Shown piece by piece: positions 48,269 to 62,100 of a stretch of DNA of 64,000 bases; position 1 is the stretch's first letter; each line of letters begins with the position of its first letter. The notes beneath the pieces are model-generated. The model was not told where the DNA came from. It was given only the letters and a program-made list of their open reading frames with translations, and made no database searches. Location: NCBI RefSeq assembly GCF_024223415.1, contig NZ_CP100500.1, one strand, 5' to 3'. Made by a program: the position numbers and the translations under genes. Origin of the DNA: Escherichia coli. GTDB taxonomy: Bacteria > Pseudomonadota > Gammaproteobacteria > Enterobacterales > Enterobacteriaceae.

Positions 48269-49249
48269 ATGAACGCAATAATATCGCCTGATTATTACTA
48301 TGTTCTTACCGTTGCTGGTCAGTCTAATGCCATGGCGTATGGCGAAGGACTGCCATTACCGGACAGGGAAGATGCGCCTCATCCCAGAATTAAACAATTA
48401 GCGAGATTTGCGCATACGCATCCCGGAGGCCCGTCATGTCACTTTAACGACATTATTCCACTGACTCACTGCCCACACGATGTTCAGGATATGCAGGGTT
48501 ATCACCATCCTCTGGCAACGAATCATCAAACACAGTACGGCACCGTTGGCCAGGCACTGCATATTGCACGGAAATTACTGCCCTTTATTCCTGATAACGC
48601 AGGGGTTCTCATCGTTCCGTGTTGCCGTGGCGGATCGGCTTTTACCGCGGGCAGCGAAGGGACATATTCAGAACGGCACGGAGCCAGCCATGATGCTTGT
48701 CGTTGGGGAACGGATACTCCGCTATACCAGGATTTAGTCAGCAGAACGCGAGCCGCATTGGCAAAAAATCCGCAGAACAAATTCCTCGGCGTATGCTGGA
48801 TGCAAGGCGAATTTGACTTAATGACCAGTGACTACGCGTCACACCCTCAACACTTTAATCATATGGTTGAAGCCTTTCGTAGGGATCTAAAACAATACCA
48901 TTCTCAGCTTAATAATATTACTGATGCGCCCTGGTTTTGCGGCGATACCACCTGGTACTGGAAAGAAAATTTCCCTCATGCGTATGAAGCTATTTATGGC
49001 AATTACCAAAATAATGTTTTAGCCAATATTATTTTCGTCGACTTCCAGCAACAAGGTGAAAGAGGACTGACGAACGCGCCTGATGAAGACCCGGACGATT
49101 TAAGCACGGGATATTACGGTTCAGCGTACCGGTCACCGGAGAACTGGACGACGGCACTGAGAAGCAGCCATTTCAGCGCGGCAGCCCGTCGGGGGATTAT
49201 TTCTGACAGGTTTGTAGAAGCAATTTTGCAGTTTTGGCGCGAAAAGTGA
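48269..49249 (+). CDS. nanS: 9-O-acetyl-N-acetylneuraminate esterase NanS
   Basis: ORF track 48242..49249; start MNAIISPDYYYVLTVAGQSNA at 48269; about 326 aa. Confidence 0.85.
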   Translation: MNAIISPDYYYVLTVAGQSNAMAYGEGLPLPDREDAPHPRIKQLARFAHTHPGGPSCHFNDIIPLTHCPHDVQDMQGYHHPLATNHQTQYGTVGQALHIARKLLPFIPDNAGVLIVPCCRGGSAFTAGSEGTYSERHGASHDACRWGTDTPLYQDLVSRTRAALAKNPQNKFLGVCWMQGEFDLMTSDYASHPQHFNHMVEAFRRDLKQYHSQLNNITDAPWFCGDTTWYWKENFPHAYEAIYGNYQNNVLANIIFVDFQQQGERGLTNAPDEDPDDLSTGYYGSAYRSPENWTTALRSSHFSAAARRGIISDRFVEAILQFWREK

Positions 49250-49379
49250 GCGTTCATTAATTTGATTTATTCGCATCCATCAACGCTTTTAACTCCTCCG
49301 GCGTGCGGCACTATAACGACTTCCACAACAAGGAGCCATTTTCTTATACCACTTTCAGTGACCATCCGCTTATGCCACC

Positions 49380-49790
49380 ACCCTCTACGCAACTGTTTGC
49401 AGAGCACCTTCCCACCGAGTGGATACAGCACTTCCTGACGCTTTCTGCTCATGCGACCGTTCGTCGTCTTAACCTGAGCGTGGATGGCGAAGCGGGGATG
49501 AACCTGCTGGCGCCCGCAGCGCTGTCACCCAGGCGCGTCAGCGCGTGGGGGCCGCCCCGGTGGAATGGCTCTTCCGCCAGACCGCACAGACATGGGGCGC
49601 GGAACGTTACCTGAAGGATGACTGGCACGGCCTGCAACTTTTTGCCATTGATGGCGCACAGTTCAGGACACCTGATGAACCCGAGCTGCGTGAATATTAT
49701 GGCTCTGCCAACACATCCACTGAGCGGCAGAGCGCCTACCCCGTCATGCGTCTGGTGGCGTTAATGAATCTGGGAATCACATTCTACTGA
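49380..49790 (+). pseudogene. Remnant of an IS4-family transposase gene (N-terminal region, frameshifted and truncated)
   Basis: Two consecutive frames (49303..49614, 49545..49790) give ...TVRRLNL... and ...WHGLQLFAIDGAQFRTPDEPE...YPVMRLVALMNL, resembling the IS4 transposase N-terminal LTLLAIDGVFWRTPDTPE...YPQVKMVCQMEL region from memory; no intact ORF or terminal IRs seen. Confidence 0.45.
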
Positions 49791-50742
49791 ATGCCATGAC
49801 CGCGCCTACCAGCGGAGCGATACGGCGTGAGGCAACAAAAGCGGCGTCAGAGATCAGCTTTAAGTTCGCGTTCCAGTTTATCGTGACAGAAATGATAGTG
49901 CTGGGAAACACGGCGTCACCGGGGACTATCCCGAAACGACTGGAGCATCTGCGGGGGCTCTGGAAGTGGTGTTCATAACAAAACGCCCCCGACCATCAAG
50001 GGCGAGGGCGGTTAAGATATCAAAAACCCGTTATCCTGTGAAACACAGTGCCGCCCCGATTAAGTGAACGGCATTGTGTTTCTGAGGGACCTTAATTTTC
50101 CCTGATTCTCTGACGTTCCTTACCATTGATATTTCCTTCATTCCTCACCAGAGAAATAAAAAATCACTATACTCATCAAAATATGAGATTACCTTTATTC
50201 AGGTGATCACCTTACTATTTTTTACGGAAAATAAATTATGAATAACAAGAAATCACTGACAAACCACCTGTAAAATGTCAATCATTTTAGTTCAATTGCC
50301 TTTGTCATGATTATCTTTTTATCGTCCTGACGATACTATTAACAATTGCAATTTTTATACCCCTCCTGAACAAATAGAAAAGAACTAATATATTCGTTTA
50401 TAATTCTGGTAATCCTGGCATCATACGTTTAAAACTTAAGATATTTATTTTATCATCATCATGGTTCCAGAGACTATTGGTCAGCTGGAAATGCCAGCCT
50501 TTTCGTGCCAGCTATATTTGTCCAGTGTGTCACCCCATCCAAAAATCATCCACATCCTGACGTTACGTTAGATATAGAGAAAACAGGTTGTACTGTGCAA
50601 TATGCAAACCGCATAAGCGAATATAATTTCTAAGTTGATATTGTCTGGCTGTTGGGAGCTAAGCAATATAAATATCGCCAGTTGCCAGAACGGTTATATA
50701 GACCAGGAGCGTTTCGGCTCCTGGCCTGTTTTGGACATATTA

Positions 50743-52857
50743 TCAGTCAGCCACTAATAGCGGACTAGGGACACCAGATGATGAAACAAACAGCCCTTTT
50801 ACGGCACGGGTTGCAGCCACATGCAGTAACGCGCGCTCATTAAATAATGCATCACGCTGTTCAACGGGATCATCGGATGCTAATGCTTTTATTTCCGGCA
50901 CAACGCCTTCGTTAATCCCCACCAGGAACACATACTGGAACTCAAGCCCTTTAATACGGTGCATCGTTGCAACCCGCACGCCAGGGCGTGCATCGCTGTC
51001 ACCGCTATCATTGCCTAAATTAAATGTCTCAATTCCGGCGTCATTCAGTGCTGATGCGTAGCGGTCACAAGCATGTTTAGTACGCGCAGTAATGCAGATA
51101 TCCTGAGAACGAACCTGATTCGCCAGCAATGCCTGAATTTGCTTGACGAGCGTTGCAGCCTCTTCTTTGAAATCTGCCGCATGCGTAATCATGGGCTTTT
51201 CCCCGTGCAGTAATGACAAATAATCATTACTGGTATCCGCTTCGCCATCGAGGTTATCAACCTTCACACCAGTTAACAGCCCAACAGCAAATTGACGCGT
51301 CTCTTCTGTGGTCCGATAGTTAATCTTCAATTTTTTACTGCGACGACCACGGACGTTAATACCACACTGACCAAGAACGACCTTATTGCGATAAATACGC
51401 TGATGCCCATCCCCGACAATAAACAGATCGTTGGGCGACTCGGGAACCAGGCTGCGAATAAGAGTAAATGCCGGGGCACCGATATCTTGAGCTTCATCGA
51501 CCACAATACTGCTATAAGGTAGTTGGACCTGCTTTTCTTTAAACAGAACAATAGCCTCATGCATGGCATCGCCCATTTCGCGCAGTTTGGCACGCGCCAT
51601 TTGTGCTCTGAATTCTTCAAAGACTGGCCAGATTTTCGCCCGTTGAATACGGGATAACGCTGTACCACGTCCAACCCGGCTGACTTTGAGGTATTCCTCC
51701 CGGGTGTAAACCGCATTTGGCTGGACAACGCGTTGCCACTCTTCAGCATAGAAATTATCAGGTAGCCCCAGTTCGGCAGGTGCCTGCTGCAAGGCATAGT
51801 TCCAGCATTTGCGTCGCCCTTCATCGCTGTCGTATACCACGCGGAAATCATAACCGTGGCGTTTTAGTTGGTCGCTCATCCAGGCATCAATGTTAACGAC
51901 GTCAATACGCGCCATCTCTTCTCGCGTACACAACCGCTGGAGATTAGCGCGAATATCTGCCGCCAGGTTACGCGTAAAGGTCGTGAAAAGTACCTTCTTA
52001 CCGGGTTTATCTGCCAGACGCTGAGATAACCACCGCGCACGGTGCATCGCAACAACCGTTTTCCCTGTACCTGCACCGCCCAGTACTCGTACCGGACCAT
52101 TAGCGGGCGACTCCACCAGTTTTCGCTGGCTCGGATGCAGAAATACACGCCATTTTTCTAAAGGCGCATTAAGCATCTGCAACAGCTCCTGTTCATTTTC
52201 AACGACATGGAAGCGACGTTTACTTCGTTCAATCGCCTCCATAAAGTCGTTGGTATCAACAGGCTCATCACGATGATCGTTAAACTCTTCCAGCACTTCC
52301 TGGTAATCCAGCCCTTCTGCCAGCCAGTGCAGAGGTTCCCAGGCTTCTGCTGGCATTATGCTTTCAAGTTGGTTAAGCCCGGCTTCATCGGTAAGCGCCA
52401 TCACCTGATCAATAAAGACAGGCGGCACGCCCAGGGCCAGAATCTGTTCCGCGCTGTAAGCCGCGAAGAGTTTCGGTTTATCAACCACCGCTTCCGGTGC
52501 CGGTTTGATATAGCTAATATCAATAACCTGAATCGCGCCGGTAACTGGGTGAATCGAACAATCATGCCGCCGCGCCCAGTCGTATGCTTCGTCGTGTTTA
52601 TCCACCCACATCAGCATATACAGGGCACCCTGTTCAGGTTTCAGAACAATGCCGCGATAAGTTTGATCGATTCGCACCGAATGGACATTTTTACTGCGCG
52701 CATCGTGGATCTTTTCATAGTTAAGTCCATTACTGGTCGGGTCCTGACGGAATTTGGAGATGAATTCCTGCACCTTTTTTTGCTGTGCTTTTGGGATCCG
52801 CGCGAATGCGCCCAGAAAACCATCAGAAAGTGCCACCTTGGGCGTTTGCACCGTCAT
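50743..52857 (-). CDS. UvrD/Rep-like SF1 helicase (704 aa) with about 250-aa N-terminal domain of unknown function; third gene of candidate defence operon
   Basis: Walker A LGGAGTGKT (aa 259-267), Walker B/motif II VVDEAQD, C-terminal motif MHRIKGLEFQYVFLV typical of UvrD/PcrA family; ATG overlaps upstream gene stop (ATGA at 52854-52857). Confidence 0.85.
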   Translation of the reverse strand: MTVQTPKVALSDGFLGAFARIPKAQQKKVQEFISKFRQDPTSNGLNYEKIHDARSKNVHSVRIDQTYRGIVLKPEQGALYMLMWVDKHDEAYDWARRHDCSIHPVTGAIQVIDISYIKPAPEAVVDKPKLFAAYSAEQILALGVPPVFIDQVMALTDEAGLNQLESIMPAEAWEPLHWLAEGLDYQEVLEEFNDHRDEPVDTNDFMEAIERSKRRFHVVENEQELLQMLNAPLEKWRVFLHPSQRKLVESPANGPVRVLGGAGTGKTVVAMHRARWLSQRLADKPGKKVLFTTFTRNLAADIRANLQRLCTREEMARIDVVNIDAWMSDQLKRHGYDFRVVYDSDEGRRKCWNYALQQAPAELGLPDNFYAEEWQRVVQPNAVYTREEYLKVSRVGRGTALSRIQRAKIWPVFEEFRAQMARAKLREMGDAMHEAIVLFKEKQVQLPYSSIVVDEAQDIGAPAFTLIRSLVPESPNDLFIVGDGHQRIYRNKVVLGQCGINVRGRRSKKLKINYRTTEETRQFAVGLLTGVKVDNLDGEADTSNDYLSLLHGEKPMITHAADFKEEAATLVKQIQALLANQVRSQDICITARTKHACDRYASALNDAGIETFNLGNDSGDSDARPGVRVATMHRIKGLEFQYVFLVGINEGVVPEIKALASDDPVEQRDALFNERALLHVAATRAVKGLFVSSSGVPSPLLVAD

Positions 52858-55800
52858 TTGTCACCTCCGGACAGATGTTGCAATGTATTTTCGTCAATTG
52901 GCCCGAATGCAACGTGCCAACCTCTGGTTGTGAATAATGGAATAAATTCTTGATTATCAATAATCAATGCCCATTTTTGTGATGGCCAGGCGAGATCGGC
53001 TTCCGCAATAATTTCACCTTCATCATTTTGCAATTCGTAGCCGAGAGTCGGCGCAGAGAGAGAATGAGACTGAAGCAACGCGATCTCTTCAGCGCTTAAT
53101 AAGCCAAACTCAATAATCTCAGCCCAACTCTCATCAGTCTCTGGTACTGCCTCTGGCGTTGCCGAAACTTTAGTGTCAACGCTTTCCTGCGGTAAATGCA
53201 CGGCTTTACGGCTGGTAAAGGTCATATCCGGCAGGAACTGTAACAGGTTTACCAGTCGCCAGAAGCCATTGAGTCCCGCTTCATAACCGTCATCCTGCGT
53301 ATAGCGATCGTCAAAACAGATATGCAAACGCAGCCAGCTGCGCATTTGTGCGACGCTGGTCGTCGGTTTAATGGCTTGTTGTGGCAACACCGAAGCCAGC
53401 TCAATAAATTGCTGCGATGAGTTACAGCTATCGAGTAAACCACCAAAGACAAACGGTTCGTCTGGCAAAAGCTCTGCTAGCCGCCAGGCTGGCGCGTTTT
53501 CCTGCATTTCATAGGCATACTTTTGTTTCGTTCCCGCGTCCTGTGACTTCTTCACATCCAACCACACCCAGGCATGTGCAGCAGCCATTCTCTGCCATAA
53601 CTGCGTTCTTCCGCCCGGATCGGCGAGATAATCCAGCAGCAGTGCAAAACTGTTGCGTTCCCGGAACGACGCTTCAAGGGCCGCAAAGTTGGTATCGTGA
53701 AACAGGTTATAAAACTTAGGCTGTTTCATATCCGGGTTATGCCCAAGTCCCAGGACATCCTGAACATGTTTAAGCCCAGGCTCTTTGAGATCGGCCCACG
53801 TGACTGTCCACACCCAGAAATTACCGCTATCCCGAATCGCCTGGCGTTTTTGCACATCCTCTGCGACGCTATTTTTGTGGAACGCAAAGCCATCAAGGAA
53901 AATAGCCACCGGTTTAATGACATCAGACTGCATAAGCGGATATAGCACGTAATCCGGGCGACAAGGGATCCCCACCGCCTCTTTAGCGCCTAAATCCACC
54001 TGAGCTTTAAGATGCCAGCTCATCATCGGTTCGCTGCGGGTGTTAATAATCCACCCAGCGCCCTGATGCGCGTAACTGCGACTGACAATCAGGTTTTTAT
54101 TTTCTTGCAGGCAGCTAATAAACCGTTTTTCCAGCTCACTGCCCATCATGGCTTCGAGGGAAATGTTTTTGATGGAATCAATTACCCGTATCGAATCTCT
54201 TGCCTGCAAAATTTTCGCCAGCAAGAGACGCGCCTGATCGCGGGAGACATACTTCATGCGCCCACGGTCACGGTAAGCGTAAACGCAACGATAACAACCA
54301 TCTTTATGCGTATCATTGTTGCAACTGCATTCCACTATTGCCTGATAGGCCAGTTCAAGTAATTTCAGCAAATTGTCGGGAGTGCGCATCAGCTCTTTAA
54401 GAGAACCAGTTCCCCCCGGGACGGTATCGTAAATCACCAGATACTGCCTCCAGGATTCGCCTTCATTTTCCGGCTCGCGGTACACAACGCCTTTCAGGTG
54501 ATCGACATTCCCCTTGAAGTAATGTTTAAGGCCGAGCTGGATCGCCGCCCCAAGAGAAGCCTCCACGACACGGTCATTACTGTAACTGCTTACCGGGAGC
54601 AGAATACGCAACGCTTCTGACTCCAGCTGGCGATAGAGATAGAGATAATCTTCGAACTTCGCCTTTTCCGGTTCCGTGCGATATTTGCAGCTCAAATCAT
54701 GACGTGGTTCATGATCGCGAGGACGCTGCACCATGCCGCACCCGAGGCAAACTTTAAACCCGGTTCGCTTCTTCGCTTCTCCGGCAATCATCAACTCATT
54801 GGCATCATCCGCCATTTTGCCGAAGTTGATATCCCGCAGGGTGACTTTGCTTAAAAATTCAAAACCAAACGGAACTTCGCCTTCCTCAATCGCGTATGCC
54901 GCCGATACATCTTCTTTTTCGAAACTAACCAATAGCTGACGCTGGAAGAAAGCAGGTTCACGGCTGTCGCTATCGTCGCTGATCTGGCTATCACGTGCGC
55001 TGGCGCGGGCATAAACCTGGCGAAGTTTCAGCAGCGTGGTTTTTTGTCCGGCATCGGCCCACCCCGGTGTGCCACATTTCGGGCAATATTTATGCTGGTC
55101 GCCCGTCTGGTCGATATTTTCGCTGTAGTTACAGTGGCTACAGATACGCCAGTTCTCCGGCTCAGAGACCTTCAGGTCTATCTGCTCAATTTCAACTTTA
55201 TGCCCACCGGCATAGAAATTATTCAGCGGAGCCAGCTCAGCCAGCGCCGTTGATGCCGGGCGTTCATATTCGAAAGTGGTGTTTTGATATTCACGCGCTT
55301 CCCCGCCTTCTTTACGCCGCCAGAGCACAGAACGTAACGTAATACCGGCTTCCGGGAAGGCGTAGTTAGGCAGCAGACCTTCATCCGTGAGGAAATTCAG
55401 CGTTTGCTTATTGTTGATTTGATTGACCAGCGCCATCAGCGCCTGCCGTTCTGAAGTCAGTTCGCGCATATCGCTGTCAAAGTTTTGATCGCGCGGCGCG
55501 TTCTCCAGTTTATCGATGCTGCGCTTGAGTTTATCGATGCGTGAGCGCAAAGATTTGCGATCTTCCACCAGCAGTTTTAACGCTTCTTCGATACGCTGCA
55601 CCAGCGAACGTTGCCCTGGCGCGCCCTGAAGATAAGACAACAGCTGTTGGCGAGTTTCTGCGGCAAGATCGGGGAAGATCGCCGTAAATTGTGCAGCAAT
55701 CTCCGCATGATGCTGTTCGATATATCGCAGTAAGTTATACGGAAAACCCGATTTACGCCCGAACTCCAGCTCATCCAGCATCTGTTTGACGTTTTTACAG

Positions 55801-58800
55801 ATAGCGGATTCTGGTACACCGGTTTTCACCCAGTTATCCATACAAAAAGCTGCCAGCTGGCGTTCGAGAATAGCCGTTGCATTGAGGAAGACGCCAGGAG
55901 CCTGCACCTGGCCCTGCATCATCTCCAGCGGTTCTTCAAAGAAAAACTGATCGTGCGGGTTCCCTTCTGCCACGGTAATGTTTAACGCGTTACCATCTTT
56001 ACGACCGGCGCGACCAATACGCTGCAAGTAGTTGGCCTGAGCAGGTGGGACAGAACAGAGTAAAACGGTGGAAAGATCGCCAACGTCAATACCCATCTCC
56101 AGCGTCGGTGTTGCCGACAACAGGTTGATATTCCACGGTTGGTTGCCGCGGTAGAACGATTTTTCGGTGGCTTCGCGATCTTCACGGCTAAGCAGCCCCG
56201 TGTGTTCTGCGCCCTGTACGCGCGCGATGTCCATGTTCTCCCAACGCCAGGTCGCCGTATTGTCGACTTCCTGGTAACGACCTTCACAACGTAAAGAGAG
56301 ACAAGGCGCATTACGCCACTGCCAGCCTTGATCGGCCGGAGCCCGGACAACCTCACGGCAACATGAACAATTAAGCTGAACGACGTCACGGCTCACCACC
56401 AGCGCCGAAGGCACCAGTCCCCAGGCTTCACGCCCTTTGGTGTCAAAATCTTTTACTACTCCGGCTATTTTCAACGCCGTAAACAGGCGTCGTAACACTG
56501 TTTCCGCAACGCTACTGATAAACAGATTATTGCCGTTACTCAGCGTGCGATTGATCCAATGCTGATACCAACTGGGGTTAGACTTCGCGCCAATCAGGCG
56601 ATGGAAACCATTAATTTTTTCAAACGACGCATAAGCCGGTTTACGCGTTTTCGGACCGATAGAAGGCATATAGCGCGAGGTACGCTCTTTTTGCGTCATC
56701 ATAAAGGTCGTGCCATCACGGCGATAACTTTCGAACGCCGGATGCATAACGGCCCCGGCCTGGCGTTGATACCAGATAACCCCCAGCGCCAGGTGCGCGA
56801 CCTGCTCGACGCTCACACCGGACATCTCATCACCCAGCTCTTCACAAAGCTGTTGATGCAGGGCGGTAATTGCCGGATTAAAGCGTTCTTTATCCACTCC
56901 GGCAACGGCATAACCGGTGGCTTCCAGCGTACGTCCGATACGCGCGCGCAGGGTGAATTCGCTGTACACCTCCCAGTCGAGGCGCAGGGAAACCAGCTCC
57001 GGCAGATCGGAGTTCTCCGCCAGTTTGCCTTCATTTTTCAGCATCTGATAATCATTCAGCCACTGCATATTTGGTGCGATGAAGTTCGCTGCAAAATGAG
57101 CATCGTCCGGTGAACGTTCACGCGTTTGTTGGCAAACACGCGCCGCGAACGCATCCAGCGGTAATGTCTCTTTTTCGCCAAGAACACTGGCGATTTGCCC
57201 ACGAATCATCAGCGGCCAGGTACGGGCAGTAAAGAAGCTGGCACGATGCGCGGCGTCTTGTACCGAGTCAGAAAACGTAATCAGCTTTTTATGTTCGTTG
57301 AACTGGCTGCCATAAAGCTGGTGAATCATCACCGCCGACAAACTGGCAGCCCGTGACCCCAGGATCGAAATCCCCTGTTTGCTGTTGCAGTACGGGCATT
57401 CATTAGCAAACTCCAGCTCGTCCTTACGCTCTTTGAGCATATCCGGGATCAGTACCTGCAACAGTTCCGTATGACCGCAATGTCCACACTGGACGCTGGA
57501 CTGTCGGTTCAGTTTCAGACAGGTAGGACACAGTTTCTGGTGTGCGCCACTGACCGCTTTTTCGTTGTTATCCGGGAAAGCAAGGACGATGGAGCGTCCT
57601 TTTTCAAAGAACTGGCGATAAATGCCGTCGAGGTCTGTTTCCAGCTGAACGCTTTGCCCATGACGCAGGCTGGCCCAGCCAGTTGCGTGGCAGTCACGGC
57701 AGTGGATAACCGGCAAATAGTGTTCGCGATCTTCCACCGCCACATCATCGGCAAACACCAGTCGGGGCGTTTTCGCCACGCTGGCGACCAGACGACGCAT
57801 CTCACGAAGCCACAACTGGGAGCGCAGTTGCACAAACGGCAGCACCGGACGCGCTTTCTTCGCCTGGAGACGTTTTTGCCGATCGTGTTCCGTTTCCGGT
57901 ACTTCGAGACGTGCCTGTGCGATCAGCGCCAGAATGCTTTGCAGCACGCGTCGGGCATGGTCGGCGCTTTCTGCCAGCATGACCTGGAGATTTTCCAGAC
58001 ACTCTCGTTCAGAGAGGATCCCGCCTTGCAGATCATGGAGTAAGACATGCATCACGCTGTGGCGGCGTAACAGTGACCCCAGCGCAATACGCTTTTCACG
58101 CCCGTCGTCGCTCTCCAGATCGTCCGGGAGTTGCAAGTCGCTGTCGGGGAACCACAAAGGGATTTGCCCGTTAAGATACGCTACCGGGGTAGCGTAACTC
58201 TGCGGGTCCAGGGCCGAAGCGACCTCCGGCCCCGGATACTGACTGTACGCAATGGCGTAATCCTGCAAGTACTCCGCTGCCGTGTAGCGATCTTCGCGAA
58301 TAACGGCGTCATCGGTAAACGGCTGGTCAAAGATTGTTTTTGCGTAATCGAGCAGTTGCCCCAGCTCGTCGCCGACGGTAGCTGATGTCCCGACGCAGGC
58401 GAATCGTTGGTTATCTACACCTATGTGATGCTTCAGACGTCGCACCAGACAGGCCAGATCCGACCCTTGCGCGCCATCAAACGTATGCAATTCATCCACG
58501 ACCAGGTAACGCAATGAACCGGGCTGGTTGTAACGCCAGAGCGGCTGATCGCCAGGGCGCATCAGCAGGTAGTCGAGCATTTTGTAGTTGGTCAACAGGA
58601 TGTCCGGCGGGCTTTCGCGCAGCGTGTGCTTGCAGGTAATGACCTTTTCTGCCGACATTTTTTTGCTGGGTTCGATTTCGCTGTCGCCGACAAACAGGCC
58701 GACGGTCACCTTGCCATGCAGTTGTGTATCGCTGGCGATGGTTTTGGCGAAACGGCTGGCCTGATCGGTTGCCAGGGCGTTCATCGGGTAGATGATAATC

Positions 58801-59195
58801 GCTTTAACCCCGGCTTGTGACGCGCCCGCGCAGTGGTTGAGCAGCGGGAACATAAAGCATTCTGTTTTACCGGAGCCGGTACCGGTAGCAACCAGCGTCG
58901 GCTGTGGCGCGTCGCTTCCCAGACGCTGAAATGCCCGGGCCTGATGCGCGTGCGGCGGGAACGGCAGCGTCAGATTAGGGAAGAAATTCAGCGGTAAGTC
59001 ACTTTTACGAAACGGCAACTGGGCGGAAAGGTATGGTCCTTTCAGCAGCGTTTCGGGCTGGGCCAGAAATTGCTCCAGCATTGAGACATTATCGTTATTC
59101 TCACCGTTAAACAGCGGACTGTTTAGCGGGAACGCCGCCCGTAAAAAGGCGGCAACGCTGTCGGCGACCTGCCGACTGACAACGGATGGCAGCAT
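52854..59195 (-). CDS. Giant multidomain SF2 (DExH, Lhr-like) helicase, 2113 aa, with zinc-ribbon/Cys clusters (DUF1998-like) and C-terminal Vsr/DUF559-like endonuclease motif; second gene of candidate defence operon
   Basis: Motif I ATGTGSGKT (58863-58883), Ia YPMNALATDQ, II VVDELH (58485-58496), V LEMGIDVGD and VI QRIGRAGR about 800 aa later; Cys clusters CSHCN...CPKCG and CSC...DGCYRC; FLDGFAFH...RQAIRDSG near aa 1740-1800 (about 53796-53978); start codon overlaps stop of upstream gene. Confidence 0.85.
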   Translation of the reverse strand: MLPSVVSRQVADSVAAFLRAAFPLNSPLFNGENNDNVSMLEQFLAQPETLLKGPYLSAQLPFRKSDLPLNFFPNLTLPFPPHAHQARAFQRLGSDAPQPTLVATGTGSGKTECFMFPLLNHCAGASQAGVKAIIIYPMNALATDQASRFAKTIASDTQLHGKVTVGLFVGDSEIEPSKKMSAEKVITCKHTLRESPPDILLTNYKMLDYLLMRPGDQPLWRYNQPGSLRYLVVDELHTFDGAQGSDLACLVRRLKHHIGVDNQRFACVGTSATVGDELGQLLDYAKTIFDQPFTDDAVIREDRYTAAEYLQDYAIAYSQYPGPEVASALDPQSYATPVAYLNGQIPLWFPDSDLQLPDDLESDDGREKRIALGSLLRRHSVMHVLLHDLQGGILSERECLENLQVMLAESADHARRVLQSILALIAQARLEVPETEHDRQKRLQAKKARPVLPFVQLRSQLWLREMRRLVASVAKTPRLVFADDVAVEDREHYLPVIHCRDCHATGWASLRHGQSVQLETDLDGIYRQFFEKGRSIVLAFPDNNEKAVSGAHQKLCPTCLKLNRQSSVQCGHCGHTELLQVLIPDMLKERKDELEFANECPYCNSKQGISILGSRAASLSAVMIHQLYGSQFNEHKKLITFSDSVQDAAHRASFFTARTWPLMIRGQIASVLGEKETLPLDAFAARVCQQTRERSPDDAHFAANFIAPNMQWLNDYQMLKNEGKLAENSDLPELVSLRLDWEVYSEFTLRARIGRTLEATGYAVAGVDKERFNPAITALHQQLCEELGDEMSGVSVEQVAHLALGVIWYQRQAGAVMHPAFESYRRDGTTFMMTQKERTSRYMPSIGPKTRKPAYASFEKINGFHRLIGAKSNPSWYQHWINRTLSNGNNLFISSVAETVLRRLFTALKIAGVVKDFDTKGREAWGLVPSALVVSRDVVQLNCSCCREVVRAPADQGWQWRNAPCLSLRCEGRYQEVDNTATWRWENMDIARVQGAEHTGLLSREDREATEKSFYRGNQPWNINLLSATPTLEMGIDVGDLSTVLLCSVPPAQANYLQRIGRAGRKDGNALNITVAEGNPHDQFFFEEPLEMMQGQVQAPGVFLNATAILERQLAAFCMDNWVKTGVPESAICKNVKQMLDELEFGRKSGFPYNLLRYIEQHHAEIAAQFTAIFPDLAAETRQQLLSYLQGAPGQRSLVQRIEEALKLLVEDRKSLRSRIDKLKRSIDKLENAPRDQNFDSDMRELTSERQALMALVNQINNKQTLNFLTDEGLLPNYAFPEAGITLRSVLWRRKEGGEAREYQNTTFEYERPASTALAELAPLNNFYAGGHKVEIEQIDLKVSEPENWRICSHCNYSENIDQTGDQHKYCPKCGTPGWADAGQKTTLLKLRQVYARASARDSQISDDSDSREPAFFQRQLLVSFEKEDVSAAYAIEEGEVPFGFEFLSKVTLRDINFGKMADDANELMIAGEAKKRTGFKVCLGCGMVQRPRDHEPRHDLSCKYRTEPEKAKFEDYLYLYRQLESEALRILLPVSSYSNDRVVEASLGAAIQLGLKHYFKGNVDHLKGVVYREPENEGESWRQYLVIYDTVPGGTGSLKELMRTPDNLLKLLELAYQAIVECSCNNDTHKDGCYRCVYAYRDRGRMKYVSRDQARLLLAKILQARDSIRVIDSIKNISLEAMMGSELEKRFISCLQENKNLIVSRSYAHQGAGWIINTRSEPMMSWHLKAQVDLGAKEAVGIPCRPDYVLYPLMQSDVIKPVAIFLDGFAFHKNSVAEDVQKRQAIRDSGNFWVWTVTWADLKEPGLKHVQDVLGLGHNPDMKQPKFYNLFHDTNFAALEASFRERNSFALLLDYLADPGGRTQLWQRMAAAHAWVWLDVKKSQDAGTKQKYAYEMQENAPAWRLAELLPDEPFVFGGLLDSCNSSQQFIELASVLPQQAIKPTTSVAQMRSWLRLHICFDDRYTQDDGYEAGLNGFWRLVNLLQFLPDMTFTSRKAVHLPQESVDTKVSATPEAVPETDESWAEIIEFGLLSAEEIALLQSHSLSAPTLGYELQNDEGEIIAEADLAWPSQKWALIIDNQEFIPLFTTRGWHVAFGPIDENTLQHLSGGDK

Positions 59196-62100
59196 CAGGC
59201 GTTCTCCTTATCTTGTGCAAAGAACGCCCAGGCCACTTTGTAGTCGTCTTCGCGATCTGGCTTGATAAACGGAGCCTGCCAGGTGACGGTGCGGCGCTCG
59301 CCTTCGTCGCTGCGGGTATAGTCATCAAAGGTGACGCTGACGGTACCGGTTTTCAGATGTTTGACATCATCCCAGCCGATGGCTTGATCGGTGCAGTCAC
59401 CGCCGGTCCACTCCGGGCTGTCGACGTTAAAGACAAAGCTGTTTTTCAGATCAGCTTTACGGGCGGTACGCGGCAGACCGACGCCCACCAGCCCTTTGCT
59501 TGGGGTAAAGATGATGCGGCCGTTTTGGTCGTACCAGGTGTCCGCTTCGTACTGGCGCATCACCGGGAACTGTACACGGTAAATGGTAAGCAGCTCTTCG
59601 AGAGTTAACCCCAGCGCCTGTGCCACCAGCACGTCGATTTCCACCAGCGCCTGACGACGACTGTAGTCGGAGCGTAAGGCGCAGTTACGCTGCCACTCTG
59701 GGGTCAGATTGGTGAAGAAATCTTGTGGCAGCAGCGGGAGATCGCGGCTCCAACGCTGGGTGTTGAAGTCTGGGGTGTAGCAGGATTGCCAGAGATCGGC
59801 GTAATCTTTCGTTAACACATTCAAAGCTAATGCTCTTGAGTTTGCACTCATTAGCTCAACATAAGGGAAGCCACGCAATGTTGATTCATAAACATCCGCC
59901 CGTCCTGTTGTTTTCAAATAAAAATCAGCCACTATTGAATGGCAAAATGCAGAGAAACTTAGCAGGTTTATTGGCTCTCTAAATGTTGTTGAGAGTACAG
60001 GGTGTATATGAGCAACGTGCTTTGGAACTATGCTGGATATCATCGAGCGTTCTGATGATGCCCCAAACATTCTCCGATTAACAAAACGATAATAATCCGT
60101 CACCTTCCTCGGCTCGTCTTCATCCTGCTCTTTCCACGAAACCCGTGGGGTGCGCTTTGCATACTCCTGTGCATCACATGCCGGAATGTAGTTAGTTCGC
60201 GGCAGGTAATCGTCGGGCAGGGTTAATAAATCAAGGCAATCATAATGGCTATTTGCCTCACAGAGAGCTCTTGGTGTCTTATTGAAAGGATTACCCACGA
60301 AGAAATGGGGACCAGACAATACCCATTGAGAAGCATCTTTTGGATACATTGTTTTACGCTCGATAGTGCCATCAATTTGCTGATTTGTTTCATGCCACAT
60401 TTCCAGAGAAAAATACTGGCCTTGCAAATCGCCTAATCGCTTCGGCTGATTGGCAAATTTTTCCAATACCGCGACAAGTTGCTCTGCGTGCAAAGCGGGA
60501 AGACGAGCCTGTAATGCTGGCGTGTCGGGTTCATCATACAAACGAGCAAATAAAGCTAGCTGCTCTTTCGTGACACGAATAAGCCTGGATTTATGACCTT
60601 TAGTATTCCATCGGCTATAGTAAACATCTTTTATATAACCTTCTTCCTTAATGCCACCAACCAATCCATCACCTGAATGCTCAAAACTCTCATCAAGAGT
60701 TGAAGGAATAAAAAGATTATTAATATTAATAAACTCCACGTCGTTCGATTTGGTCATAGAGTAAACATGTGTCCCAAATTTCATTCGACCGTGATCATTT
60801 GTTCCAACAAATAGAGAAAACTCATTTTGATATTGGCAATGTAGACGTAACCTTGGATAGATCTCTTCTCTGAAGAGCCCTCCCTTAGGATCGTCATATA
60901 CCCCCTCTGGGTGAACAAATCCTGCCACGCCTTTCTCTGCCCCCAGACGCCAGGCCTGAGGCAGGAAGCATTTATACAAGTTGGTCTGCACCCCGCGCAG
61001 TACCGGGTAGTTTTGCTGCGCATTGAGGAAGTTTTGCATCCCTTCACAGCCTTCATACTCGCTGCGCCAGGCCGCTTCCAGCGCCGGGATCTGGTTAAAG
61101 GTATCAATACGCAACGTTGCCAGCTTCGATGCACTCAGCTTACGCAGCACAAATTCCGGCTCGTAATCACCCAGCACGCCCGCTTCCTGCCATTCCACTT
61201 TCAGCCACGGCGGGTTTCCGAGCATCAGGTCAAAACCGCCGCGCTCGGCAAACAGGTCGCAGAACTCCAGATCCCAGTGGAAGAAACGGTGCTGCTTTCT
61301 CAGGGCATCGACAATCGCCAGACGCGGCAAATGGCGGAACAGCACATCGGTTTTCAGACGACCAGCAACGGAAAACAGCGAAGACTCTTCTCGCAGCAGG
61401 CCTTCTTCGGCAAACAGATCGCCAGTAGTGCGCTCCGCAACTTCAGTGACTTTTTCCGTAATCACAATCCCGTCGAGCAGGGTTTCAATCTCAAACAACC
61501 AGGTACCGCGATCCGGTAACTCATCGGCTTTGTCGATCGGCCAGAACCACAGCGCGCACCAGTAGTCCATCACCCAACGCAGCTTCTGGTAGGCGCTGTT
61601 ATCTTCAAGACGACCGCTAAAGGTTTCATCTTTACTGCTCAGCGAAGAACGCGTCTGCTCGCTGTTTTCTGCCGGCCACACCGGGTAGCTGTCGGCGGTT
61701 TTCAGACGTTCTGCTTTAAGTTGCTGGCGATAGGTGTTCCACAGTGCTTCCACCTTTTCGCTGATACGCTGCACATCAGCAATCTCATGCCCGGCAAAGC
61801 TTTTAATAAACTCTTTGCGCCAGCTGTCCAGCGCTTTGAAGTCATCCGGATAACGCTGCTTAACAGTTTTATCGCTGTAGTTAGCCATACCGCCGTCGGG
61901 CAGCAGGAAGTGGAAAATCTGCGTCTCTTCACGCGGCGTGTTCATCGCCAGTTCGACCGGCTCGCTGTTAAGCCAGCTAGGATCTTTGGCTTTTTTGTAG
62001 GTCAGTTCGCTCTTGTTGAACACCTGACGGCGCGCGCCCACCAGCGAGTTACCGCAGTGCAGCTGGTAACCAAACCACGGTACAAAGGCATCGCCACTGA

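Follow-up and report, generated by a model that had tools for sequence, protein, structure and literature searches.

The gene beside nanS is armD, which closes the four-gene operon of an ARMADA type II system (armA-armB-armC-armD), and its product joins a RelE-like domain to a UvrD/GajB-like SF1 helicase. The DNA analysed, referred to here as the window, is a 64,000-nucleotide stretch of an Escherichia coli genome (contig NZ_CP100500.1). Taken as a whole, the armD identity together with the ARMADA mechanism proposed below is the best explanation of the locus, with a probability of roughly 0.9. The gene is not new, as the system was described and tested in 2025, when phage defence by ARMADA type II was shown in two preprints (PMC12458937; bioRxiv 10.1101/2025.09.22.677730). 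The published naming and experiments are consistent with the locus in the window.

The open reading frame (ORF) listing of the window holds armD as an uninterrupted frame of 704 codons, the intact gene that a sequence-only reading of this DNA had described. The protein is identical at 702 of 704 residues to ArmD of O157:H7 86-24 (WP_000218177.1), the sole differences being P121 and A123 in the linker. The published ArmD comes from another strain background, O157:H7 NCTC 12900, and is tied to the window ArmD by identical length and residue numbering; K266 and D454 of the window protein match the numbering of the published mutants (PMC12458937). Given the 702 of 704 identical residues, the published ArmD is unlikely to be some other protein. 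Megablast located armD in 533 of 5426 E. coli genomes, with 525 copies full-length. Two further ORFs inside armD, one antisense (52207..52953, +) and one out of frame (51327..51851, -), are mechanical and without support.

Table 1. Features of the armD locus, in window coordinates.
Feature	Position	Strand	Description or basis
Island boundary, nanS stop to armD	49253..50742	.	no K-12 counterpart
Hairpin, perfect 8-bp, G+C-rich	50703..50724	.	19 nt after armD stop; probable end of operon
armD	50743..52857	-	704-aa ArmD, RelE-like domain + UvrD/GajB-like SF1 helicase
SF1A helicase core, codons 236-704	50746..52152	-	domains 1A/1B/2A/2B
Low-complexity linker, then conserved helical module, codons ~114-235	52153..52518	-	secondary structure of full-length model
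RelE/YoeB-like fold, codons 1-113	52519..52857	-	predicted structure and fold searches
ATGA overlap, armC stop / armD start	52854..52857	-	sequence read; 4 nt
armC	52854..59195	-	2113-aa YprA-family DExH helicase, DUF1998 and nuclease-like C-terminal domains
armB 3' part, gene runs off window	59195..64000	-	PglX/DrmMI-like adenine methyltransferase

The position of armD directly after the YprA-like armC follows the armA-armB-armC-armD order. Bell et al. use WP_000937974.1 as their representative of ARMADA type II, and the window ArmC differs from it at 9 of 2113 residues; in PADLOC this ArmC is matched by DruE3 (E=4.6e-104) and DrmA (E=3.6e-14). The overlap of the armC stop with the armD start, and a GGAGG 8 nt upstream of the latter, suggest translational coupling of the two genes. 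The armB ORF runs from 59195 to 63967 and beyond, and the protein measures 1643-1644 aa in reference genomes. RefSeq names it a “class I SAM-dependent DNA methyltransferase”, and its PADLOC matches are a type IIG RE-MTase (E=1.7e-286) and DrmMI (E=6e-57). The operon partners of armD are typed as DruE/YprA-like, DrmMI-like and DrmD-like. The sequence-only reading was right to place the gene in a multi-gene defence operon, but counted three genes where there are four; armA lies past the end of the window and is found in near-identical loci of other genomes. In the nearest complete genome, that of the calf isolate NCTC10444, armA is frameshifted; ARMADA may be non-functional in the source strain.

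The island also contains zorA2/zorB2/zorE, STY4851/ECs_5259 (DruH) and DruE. ArmC, ArmB and the Druantia III and Zorya II neighbours are all as in the published ARMADA type II locus. Between nanS and armD lies a frameshifted transposase remnant (approximately 49303-50067), seen as ORF fragments with one PHROG match and annotated in RefSeq as a “transposase domain-containing protein, frameshifted”. An Rfam scan of 49000-53200 returned no RNA family. The SNF2 helicase (DrmD/BrxHII-like), the methyltransferase (DrmMI/PglX-like) and the DUF1998-bearing YprA-family helicase of ARMADA are shared with DISARM class 1 and Druantia type III. DISARM and Druantia are without a RelE-UvrD fourth gene, and DISARM has the PLD nuclease DrmC in its place.

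The published experiments report that ARMADA protects against many phages through a direct, non-abortive route, without growth arrest, abortive infection or loss of viability, and that all four arm genes are needed in a heterologous host (PMC12458937). With the system expressed in BL21-AI, deletion of armD abolishes defence, as does the ArmD K266A substitution, and D454N weakens it (PMC12458937). The K266A result speaks against an ATPase-dead ArmD retaining defence. In native EDL933, deletion of armD is milder than deletion of any of the other three genes (10.1101/2025.09.22.677730), so ArmD may be partly dispensable. The phage challenge of a deletion that had been proposed for this gene is thus already in print, with defence abolished in BL21-AI and weakened in EDL933.

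ArmD is a three-part protein: a RelE/YoeB fold (aa 1-113), a helical module extending to approximately residue 235, and an SF1A ATPase-helicase core (236-704). The core matches Pfam UvrD-helicase at 241-490 (E=4.8e-23) and UvrD_C at 509-693, and both Walker motifs are intact. Walker A (GTGKT, 263-267) includes K266, and Walker B (VDEAQD, 453-458, with DEAQD at 454-458) includes D454; the further helicase motifs are GDxHQ (482), YRTT (514) and HRIKGLE (633). The full-length model (pLDDT 93.3, pTM 0.90) has UvrD, PcrA and Rep as its nearest structures, and the best PADLOC match of ArmD is GajB (E=2.5e-36). In the region of the helical module G143, P145, P169, L176, G182, W236 and H241 are conserved, with the invariant W236 and H241 (WRVFLHP) marking its end and the lead-in to the helicase. 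A profile of residues 128-243 gave no significant match in Pfam or the PDB. Its best match, a likeness to the MCM4 winged helix (E=0.09/0.0077), was non-significant and is not relied on. A direct Pfam scan of E. coli ArmD likewise found nothing in the first ~240 aa. Three statements of the sequence-only reading find their place here: the SF1/UvrD-like motor is borne out by the Walker and Pfam evidence, the N-terminal region, given there as 250 aa, does lack a Pfam match over its first ~240 aa in that scan, and its impression of a RelE/ParE-like fold, drawn from a peptide at aa 56-98, agrees with structure prediction and two fold searches.

The AF2 model of the N-terminal domain (pLDDT 92.3) shows the compact β-α-α-β-β-β(-α) arrangement of the RelE/ParE superfamily. 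Its elements are β1 (7-10), α1 (12-20), α2 (23-38), β2 (58-62), β3 (67-72), β4 (79-87) and α3 (88-97), followed by an extra C-terminal β-hairpin (98-113). The top Foldseek matches are aRelE, YoeB, RelE and YafQ, with a TM (target) of 0.73-0.81; Cami1 (8phj, 8phb) and ParE structures are also among the fold matches. In the PDB, the top match of the family profile was YoeB (E=0.004). When 39 homologues were scanned singly, the ParE_like, HigB and YoeB families surfaced, and 25 of the 39 matched Pfam ParE_like at E<=0.1. E. coli ArmD itself reached a best E of 0.14 against the Pfam RelE/ParE families, which is not significant; membership of the superfamily therefore rests on the homologues and the fold. 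Bell et al. 2025 (PMC12458937) independently describe a RelE-like N-terminus of ArmD, joined to the helicase as it is here.

Conservation within the domain centres on E48, R62, R68, H88, D89 and W94. In hhalign and HMM alignments E48 falls opposite YoeB E46, R62 opposite R59, and R68 opposite R65 (RelE R61). The alignment with YoeB ends short of its C-terminal His, and the correspondence of H88 with YoeB H83 is therefore inferred, by manual register and not by superposition. H88 stands opposite RelE R81 only in an ungapped extension, the RelE alignment itself ending at V85/V78, and a family-profile hmmsearch against E. coli YafQ gave no usable alignment. Among 204 homologues, only ~40% identical overall, E48 is kept in 199, R62 in 202, R68 in 203 and H88 in 202. 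By alignment, a putative YoeB-type site of E48, R68 and H88 appears to be retained in at least 97% of the 204. This residue conservation is the new element of the present analysis and is absent from the ARMADA preprints (PMC12458937, 10.1101/2025.09.22.677730); the published ARMADA work reports no mutants in the RelE-like domain.

YoeB, RelE and YafQ are free toxins of ~90 aa, whereas the ArmD domain has a 590-aa helicase fused to it. The catalytic-type positions of YoeB (E46/R65/H83) are retained as E48/R68/H88, with H88 placed by register, and YoeB Y84 is replaced by the conserved D89. ArmD further differs from type II toxins in its extra hairpin (98-113), in belonging to a system without growth arrest and in having no antitoxin gene. 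No small co-oriented ORF was found beside codons 1-113, the neighbours checked being the 2113-aa armC upstream and the hairpin and IS remnant downstream, and the domain does not form a type II toxin-antitoxin pair. Cami1, the CARF-RelE protein of type III CRISPR, is, like ArmD, an immune-system protein in which a RelE fold is joined to a large regulatory module. It is switched by cyclic tetra-adenylate, cuts ribosome-bound mRNA and arrests growth; in ArmD a helicase replaces CARF, and ARMADA is non-abortive.

In the wider family, 1969 representative clusters carry the N-terminal region, most full-length members being ~700 aa. The search for related loci used the full-length alignment, the N-terminal alignment being without a sufficiently conserved block. 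Across phyla, 67 of 74 diverse genomes place the ArmD-like gene immediately after one for an ArmC-like protein. Candidate partners other than ArmC include the Tiamat TmtA (Vibrio albus), DrmA/DrmB (Vibrio ezurae) and a DruE-like helicase (a Holophagaceae genome). Where ArmC is missing, in rare loci, the upstream partner can share just a short C-terminal segment with it. Two distant homologues were traced on short contigs only, and one of these, a metagenome contig, carries a type I hsdS neighbour.

The mechanism proposed for ARMADA is as follows. In the manner of DISARM and BREX, ArmB would methylate the DNA of the host, and ArmA together with ArmC, a helicase plus Vsr-type nuclease, would attack unmodified phage DNA. 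ArmD, powered by ATP, would serve as an accessory motor that is recruited to ArmC or by it, and would probably load on ssDNA or on DNA ends made during this attack or during phage replication. Its N-terminal domain would probably have a working YoeB-type site (E48, R68, H88), binding and probably cutting RNA at the target, for example nascent phage transcripts or R-loop RNA. An active RNase is a real possibility for the RelE-like domain, at somewhat less than even odds. If it is not an RNase, the domain would act as an adaptor that binds nucleic acid or a partner. A classical mRNA interferase that depends on the ribosome and is set free in the cell is hard to reconcile with the non-abortive behaviour of ARMADA.

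A more specific and tentative proposal, which we consider rather unlikely as it stands, is that the ArmD N-terminus is an antitoxin-free YoeB-type endoribonuclease gated by the fused helicase, the RelE-UvrD unit possibly being a portable accessory. Gating of this kind would remove the need for an antitoxin. A short C-terminal segment common to ArmC, TmtA and ZorE, which in ArmC spans aa 2046-2096, may be what the unit docks through.

The strongest competing account keeps ArmD as the ARMADA helicase and makes the RelE-like domain a non-nuclease, structural or regulatory adaptor that docks ArmC or nucleic acid, or auto-inhibits the motor, with the conserved polar residues serving in binding; it has about an even chance of being correct. 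A defence that spares viability and the lack of an encoded antitoxin both sit well with it. So does the pTM of the full-length model, which predicts the domain to be packed in a fixed position against the rest of the protein and not hanging free. To our knowledge, the ParE-type members of the RelE/ParE fold are not RNases. The short C-terminal segment that an upstream partner can share with ArmC, in the rare loci where ArmC is missing, hints at docking. Against the adaptor stands the fact that the near-invariant residues are those aligned to the catalytic positions of YoeB and RelE.

It is very unlikely that armD is instead a UvrD/Rep paralogue with a housekeeping or repair role, or the GajB of Gabija, present in the island by chance. 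Its closest structures and PADLOC family invite such a view, yet the scores of ArmD lie about tenfold or more under the NCBIfam equivalog cut-offs (bits/cut-off: pcrA 99.7/911, uvrD 82/1144, rep 92/951, HelD 46/419). The gene is also confined to roughly a tenth of E. coli genomes and tightly linked to ArmC across phyla, and its published deletion and K266A phenotypes are specific to defence. GajB, like ArmD, is a UvrD-like SF1 ATPase that serves a nuclease-based defence as its accessory subunit, but it has no RelE-like N-terminus and its partner is GajA, an OLD/TOPRIM nuclease, where ArmD has a YprA-family helicase-nuclease. The RefSeq annotation of the locus contains no GajA, the adjacent genes being those of ArmC/ArmB and the transposase remnant, and ArmD does not class as Gabija.

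The idea, put forward in the sequence-only reading, that K-12 yjhR has its intact, ancestor-like form in armD, and that K-12 once had the whole system, can be given almost no credence. There are genuine resemblances: both genes are annotated as helicase-family and agree in orientation and in their side relative to nanS, and armD does indeed adjoin nanS on the flank that carries yjhR in K-12. The two proteins are nonetheless unrelated (ArmD against YjhR, BLASTP E=1.2). The PADLOC profile for MkoC of Mokosh type II, 1136 positions long, matches YjhR over positions 812-1135 (E=3.8e-139), which identifies yjhR as the C-terminal third of an MkoC gene; yjhR also serves as a Mokosh example in 10.1101/2022.12.12.520048. 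No Mko model occurs among the best 25 of the 36 PADLOC matches of ArmD, which is not assigned to MkoC. Both are helicase-family defence genes in the variable region beside nanS, but YjhR/MkoC has an MkoA-type RNA-helicase (Upf1-like) domain and a PLD nuclease domain, with no detectable homology to ArmD.

The positions of the two genes are not equivalent either. Synteny with K-12 ends at the nanS stop codon (position 49252), past which there is no DNA similarity to K-12, and tblastn of ArmA-D against a 21-kb K-12 region found no ARMADA remnant (best E=0.96). In NCTC10444 the whole ARMADA-Druantia-Zorya array sits between nanS and a restriction-enzyme gene; all that K-12 keeps of the latter is 247 bp lying between nanS and yjhR, and the position of yjhR corresponds to the far side of the ~30-kb array. 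As yjhR belongs to a different family and system at a non-equivalent position, ancestral presence and decay of ARMADA in K-12 do not follow. yjhR was found in 1730 genomes, and the K-12 record carrying it is absent among the 30 of 533 armD megablast matches that were listed. A tempting mis-assignment is thereby corrected: K-12 yjhR is a Mokosh relic and not a decayed armD.

ARMADA II has been reported as the dominant phage-resistance determinant of EHEC O157:H7, which makes it relevant to phage therapy aimed at Shiga-toxin strains. Among its components, ArmD is the least understood. The present analysis adds no new system, but makes the question of the RelE-like site directly testable. It raises the question of whether a toxin-type RNase is at work inside a non-abortive, restriction-like defence. 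If so, a DNA-directed, methylation-based and non-abortive defence would gain a local RNA-cutting arm.

On its sequence, the gene on the minus strand beside nanS is armD of the anti-phage system ARMADA type II. Its product differs from ArmD of O157:H7 strain 86-24 only by P121A and A123T, and the 2113-residue ArmC encoded upstream shows nine differences from WP_000937974.1, the ARMADA type II representative of Bell et al. (PMC12458937). The gene has already been described and tested in 2025 preprints. ARMADA was defined from a tree of YprA helicases, and type II has a strict order of a BrxHII-like helicase, a PglX-like methyltransferase and a YprA-like helicase (PMC12458937). The armABCD operon cloned from O157:H7 strain NCTC 12900 protected against 13 of 80 phages, all of armA, armB, armC and armD were needed in the cloned-operon tests, and defence was direct, without growth arrest (PMC12458937). 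Defence was lost with the ArmD substitution K266A and was weaker with D454N (PMC12458937). Both residues carry the same numbers in the window protein. In EDL933, armABCD corresponds to z5899-z5902 in O-island 172 and is the strongest of three systems; in this native setting, deletion of armD has a milder effect than deletion of armA, armB or armC (10.1101/2025.09.22.677730).

The ORF listing of the window, the Pfam UvrD domains and the Walker motifs together establish that the intact SF1 helicase gene proposed by the sequence-only reading is real and uninterrupted. The start codon of armD shares four bases with the stop codon of armC (ATGA), and a GGAGG lies 8 nt upstream. Since the T-run of the hairpin downstream of armD is found only on the plus-strand side, this structure may end transcription from either direction. 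The full-length AlphaFold model (73 sequences; pLDDT 93.3, pTM 0.90) has UvrD, PcrA and Rep as its top structural matches. A housekeeping UvrD, Rep, PcrA or HelD is rejected, because ArmD falls far short of the cut-offs of the curated uvrD, rep, pcrA and helD models. A direct Pfam scan of the window protein gave no match in residues 1-240, and the helical, conserved region at about residues 130-235 matched nothing significant in Pfam or PDB.

Coordinates of armD, its domains and the neighbouring and comparison loci
Feature	Location	Particulars
nanS	window 48269-49249 (+)	intact ORF; 98% identity to K-12 NanS across all 326 residues
End of blastn alignment to the K-12 region	window 49252	three bases past the nanS stop codon
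nanS stop to armD	window 49253-50742	no K-12 counterpart; marks the island edge
Transposase remnant, frameshifted	window 49303-49978 (ORF fragments)	RefSeq pseudogene at ~49372-50067
Hairpin	window 50703-50724	perfect, 8 bp, 6 GC; 19 nt 3′ of the armD stop codon
armD	window 50743..52857 (-)	unbroken frame of 704 codons
UvrD/REP N-terminal helicase domain	ArmD aa 241-490	Pfam, E=4.8e-23
Walker A	ArmD aa 263-267	GTGKT; K266
Walker B	ArmD aa 453-458	VDEAQD; D454
UvrD_C, two stretches	ArmD aa 509-615 and 620-693	Pfam
ArmC C-terminal segment	window 52857-53009	ArmC aa ~2046-2096
armA, NCTC10444	L002:29387-32244	beyond window 64000
yjhR (b4308), K-12 MG1655	L001:13016-14032	338-aa translation
Segment between yjhR and nanS, K-12 MG1655	L001:14269-14515	247 bp
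Far end of the array, NCTC10444	L003:32192-33414	nanM fragment and intact restriction-enzyme gene; beyond the window
Vibrio albus	L012:4964-12145	Zorya II, then Tiamat TmtA, directly then ArmD-like gene
Vibrio ezurae	L013:334-12151	DrmA, DrmB, helicase genes, NERD helicase, then ArmD-like gene
Holophagaceae MAG	L015:9980-20588	ArmD-like gene precedes DruE3-like helicase
Metagenome contig	L007:1-3024	ArmD-like gene after type I hsdS

The gene had also been taken for the intact counterpart of K-12 yjhR, part of an ancestral system degraded in K-12. When ArmD is aligned to K-12 YjhR, the two come out as unrelated (BLASTP E=1.2). YjhR matches the PADLOC MkoC profile over positions 812-1135 of 1136 (E=3.8e-139), and the K-12 “yjhR protein” was used as a fused MkoA-MkoB Mokosh in a 2022 preprint (10.1101/2022.12.12.520048). 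From this profile match and earlier usage, yjhR is the tail of a Mokosh type II gene, namely the C-terminal third of MkoC, and the proposed correspondence is wrong. The placement of the locus holds in part: yjhR does lie beyond nanS in matching orientation, but the positions are not equivalent, with a restriction-gene fragment intervening in K-12. Nor is the degraded ancestral system borne out, as synteny stops just past nanS and a tblastn search of the 21-kb K-12 region for remnants of ArmA-D gave nothing below E=0.96. Rather than a single system in decay, the nanS locus is a variable hotspot where alternative defence cargo is found. Among 5426 complete E. coli genomes, armD is present in 533 and yjhR in 1730. 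In strain Ecol_448, yjhR is split further by an IS66 element.

The K-12 fragment has 89.5% identity to a gene annotated as a “phosphorothioated DNA-binding restriction endonuclease”, of which K-12 retains this piece only. In NCTC10444 the gene lies beyond the ARMADA-Druantia-Zorya array as seen from nanS, beside a 245-bp nanM fragment. Given these two features at the far end and the gene fragment between yjhR and nanS in K-12, the array of approximately 30 kb behaves as an insertion between nanS and the restriction gene, and nanM is partially duplicated at the junction. At the nanS site of NCTC10444 and O157 86-24, the only RefSeq entry is a 345-bp pseudogene, an “incomplete” sialate O-acetylesterase. 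NCTC10444 and the window are base-identical across nanS, and the pseudogene is probably an annotation artefact.

Within the operon, ArmC matches the PADLOC DruE models (E=4.6e-104), with DrmA, DpdJ and BrxH weaker. The armB gene reaches past the window end (64000); in NCTC10444 and O157:H7 86-24 it encodes a SAM-dependent DNA methyltransferase of 1643-1644 aa, matching type IIG RE-MTase (E=1.7e-286) and DrmMI (E=6e-57). Upstream of armB in near-identical genomes, ArmA is a 952-aa SNF2 helicase with a DrmD match (E=1.4e-99). Farther along the island are a Druantia III pair (an STY4851/ECs_5259-family protein and a 2104-aa helicase) and then zorA2-zorB2-zorE. The closest genome to the window, NCTC10444, differs by 11 SNPs in 29,258 bases, none inside armD. 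Its armA is annotated as frameshifted; that of O157:H7 86-24 is intact. Because of this frameshift and the reported need for all four genes, ARMADA II may be inactive in the window lineage, whose armA lies outside the window.

Taking one genome per species, a linkage scan yielded 80 loci, each covering approximately residues 1-700, from Gammaproteobacteria, Betaproteobacteria, Cyanobacteria, Firmicutes, Bacteroidetes, Acidobacteria, Verrucomicrobia, Chloroflexi and others. Upstream sequence of 1.5 kb or more was available for 74 loci, and in 67 of them an ArmC-like gene ends at the ArmD-like start. Loci without ArmC are defence contexts as well (see the last rows of the table), and more than one kind of defence system may make use of the RelE-UvrD module. 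ArmC and V. albus TmtA have homologous C-terminal ends (the final ~50 residues of ArmC; 37% identity, E=3e-7), and each of the two also matches the ZorE2 model in its C-terminal portion. As a lead only, this shared end may be a docking or partner domain for ArmD-type helicases; it may also simply be a common remnant of a Vsr-like nuclease.

Against 1.84 billion representative proteins, residues 1-241 of ArmD matched 1969 clusters (E<=0.001); of the members that are full-length, most are ~700 aa with the same layout. The AlphaFold model of residues 1-134 (39 sequences; mean pLDDT 92.3) has the order b-a-a-b-b-b-a, then an extra hairpin. Its top 50 Foldseek matches in PDB (best E=1.5e-5; TM on target 0.73-0.81) include archaeal RelE, YoeB, RelE, YafQ, HP0892/0894, ParE2, HigB2 and Cami1, and also Txp40 (7xbj). 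The N-terminal family profile ranked YoeB first among PDB sequences (E=0.004). E. coli ArmD alone reaches E=0.14 at best against Pfam RelE/ParE families; ParE_like is matched at E<=0.1 by 25 of the 39 family members, and the lowest E-values are 3.3e-6 for ParE_like and 5.1e-6 for HigB-like. Fold, profile and homologue matches therefore bear out the weak, motif-level RelE/ParE resemblance noted earlier.

When ArmD is aligned to E. coli YoeB by hhalign and by HMM, its E48, R62 and R68 correspond to E46, R59 and R65; the YoeB sequence used agrees with the known protein in its length of 84 and in positions E46 and R65. Against RelE, R68 corresponds to R61, and ungapped extension from the last aligned pair (ArmD V85/RelE V78) places H88 at R81, the YoeB H83 position, a mapping that rests on alignment register and not on superposition. 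Among 204 homologues (~40% mean identity), E48 is retained in 199, R62 in 202, R68 in 203 and H88 in 202, along with D89 (194), W94 (204) and Q110 (202). As exactly the catalytic-type positions are conserved, the residue pattern argues for a functional YoeB-like site in ArmD.

The four-gene ARMADA II operon gives non-abortive protection (PMC12458937). The methyltransferase NPPW motif, the Walker motifs of both large helicases and the ArmD Walker A lysine are needed, as found here or in print. In the proposed mechanism, ArmB would mark self DNA, and ArmA and ArmC would attack phage DNA lacking the mark. ArmD would be an ATP-driven accessory helicase and partner of ArmC, its RelE-like domain binding RNA at the site of attack and possibly cutting it there. 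Catalytic RNase activity of this domain is given a probability of roughly 40%. Conservation of the site does not prove such activity, and there is a roughly even chance that the domain is a non-catalytic adaptor.
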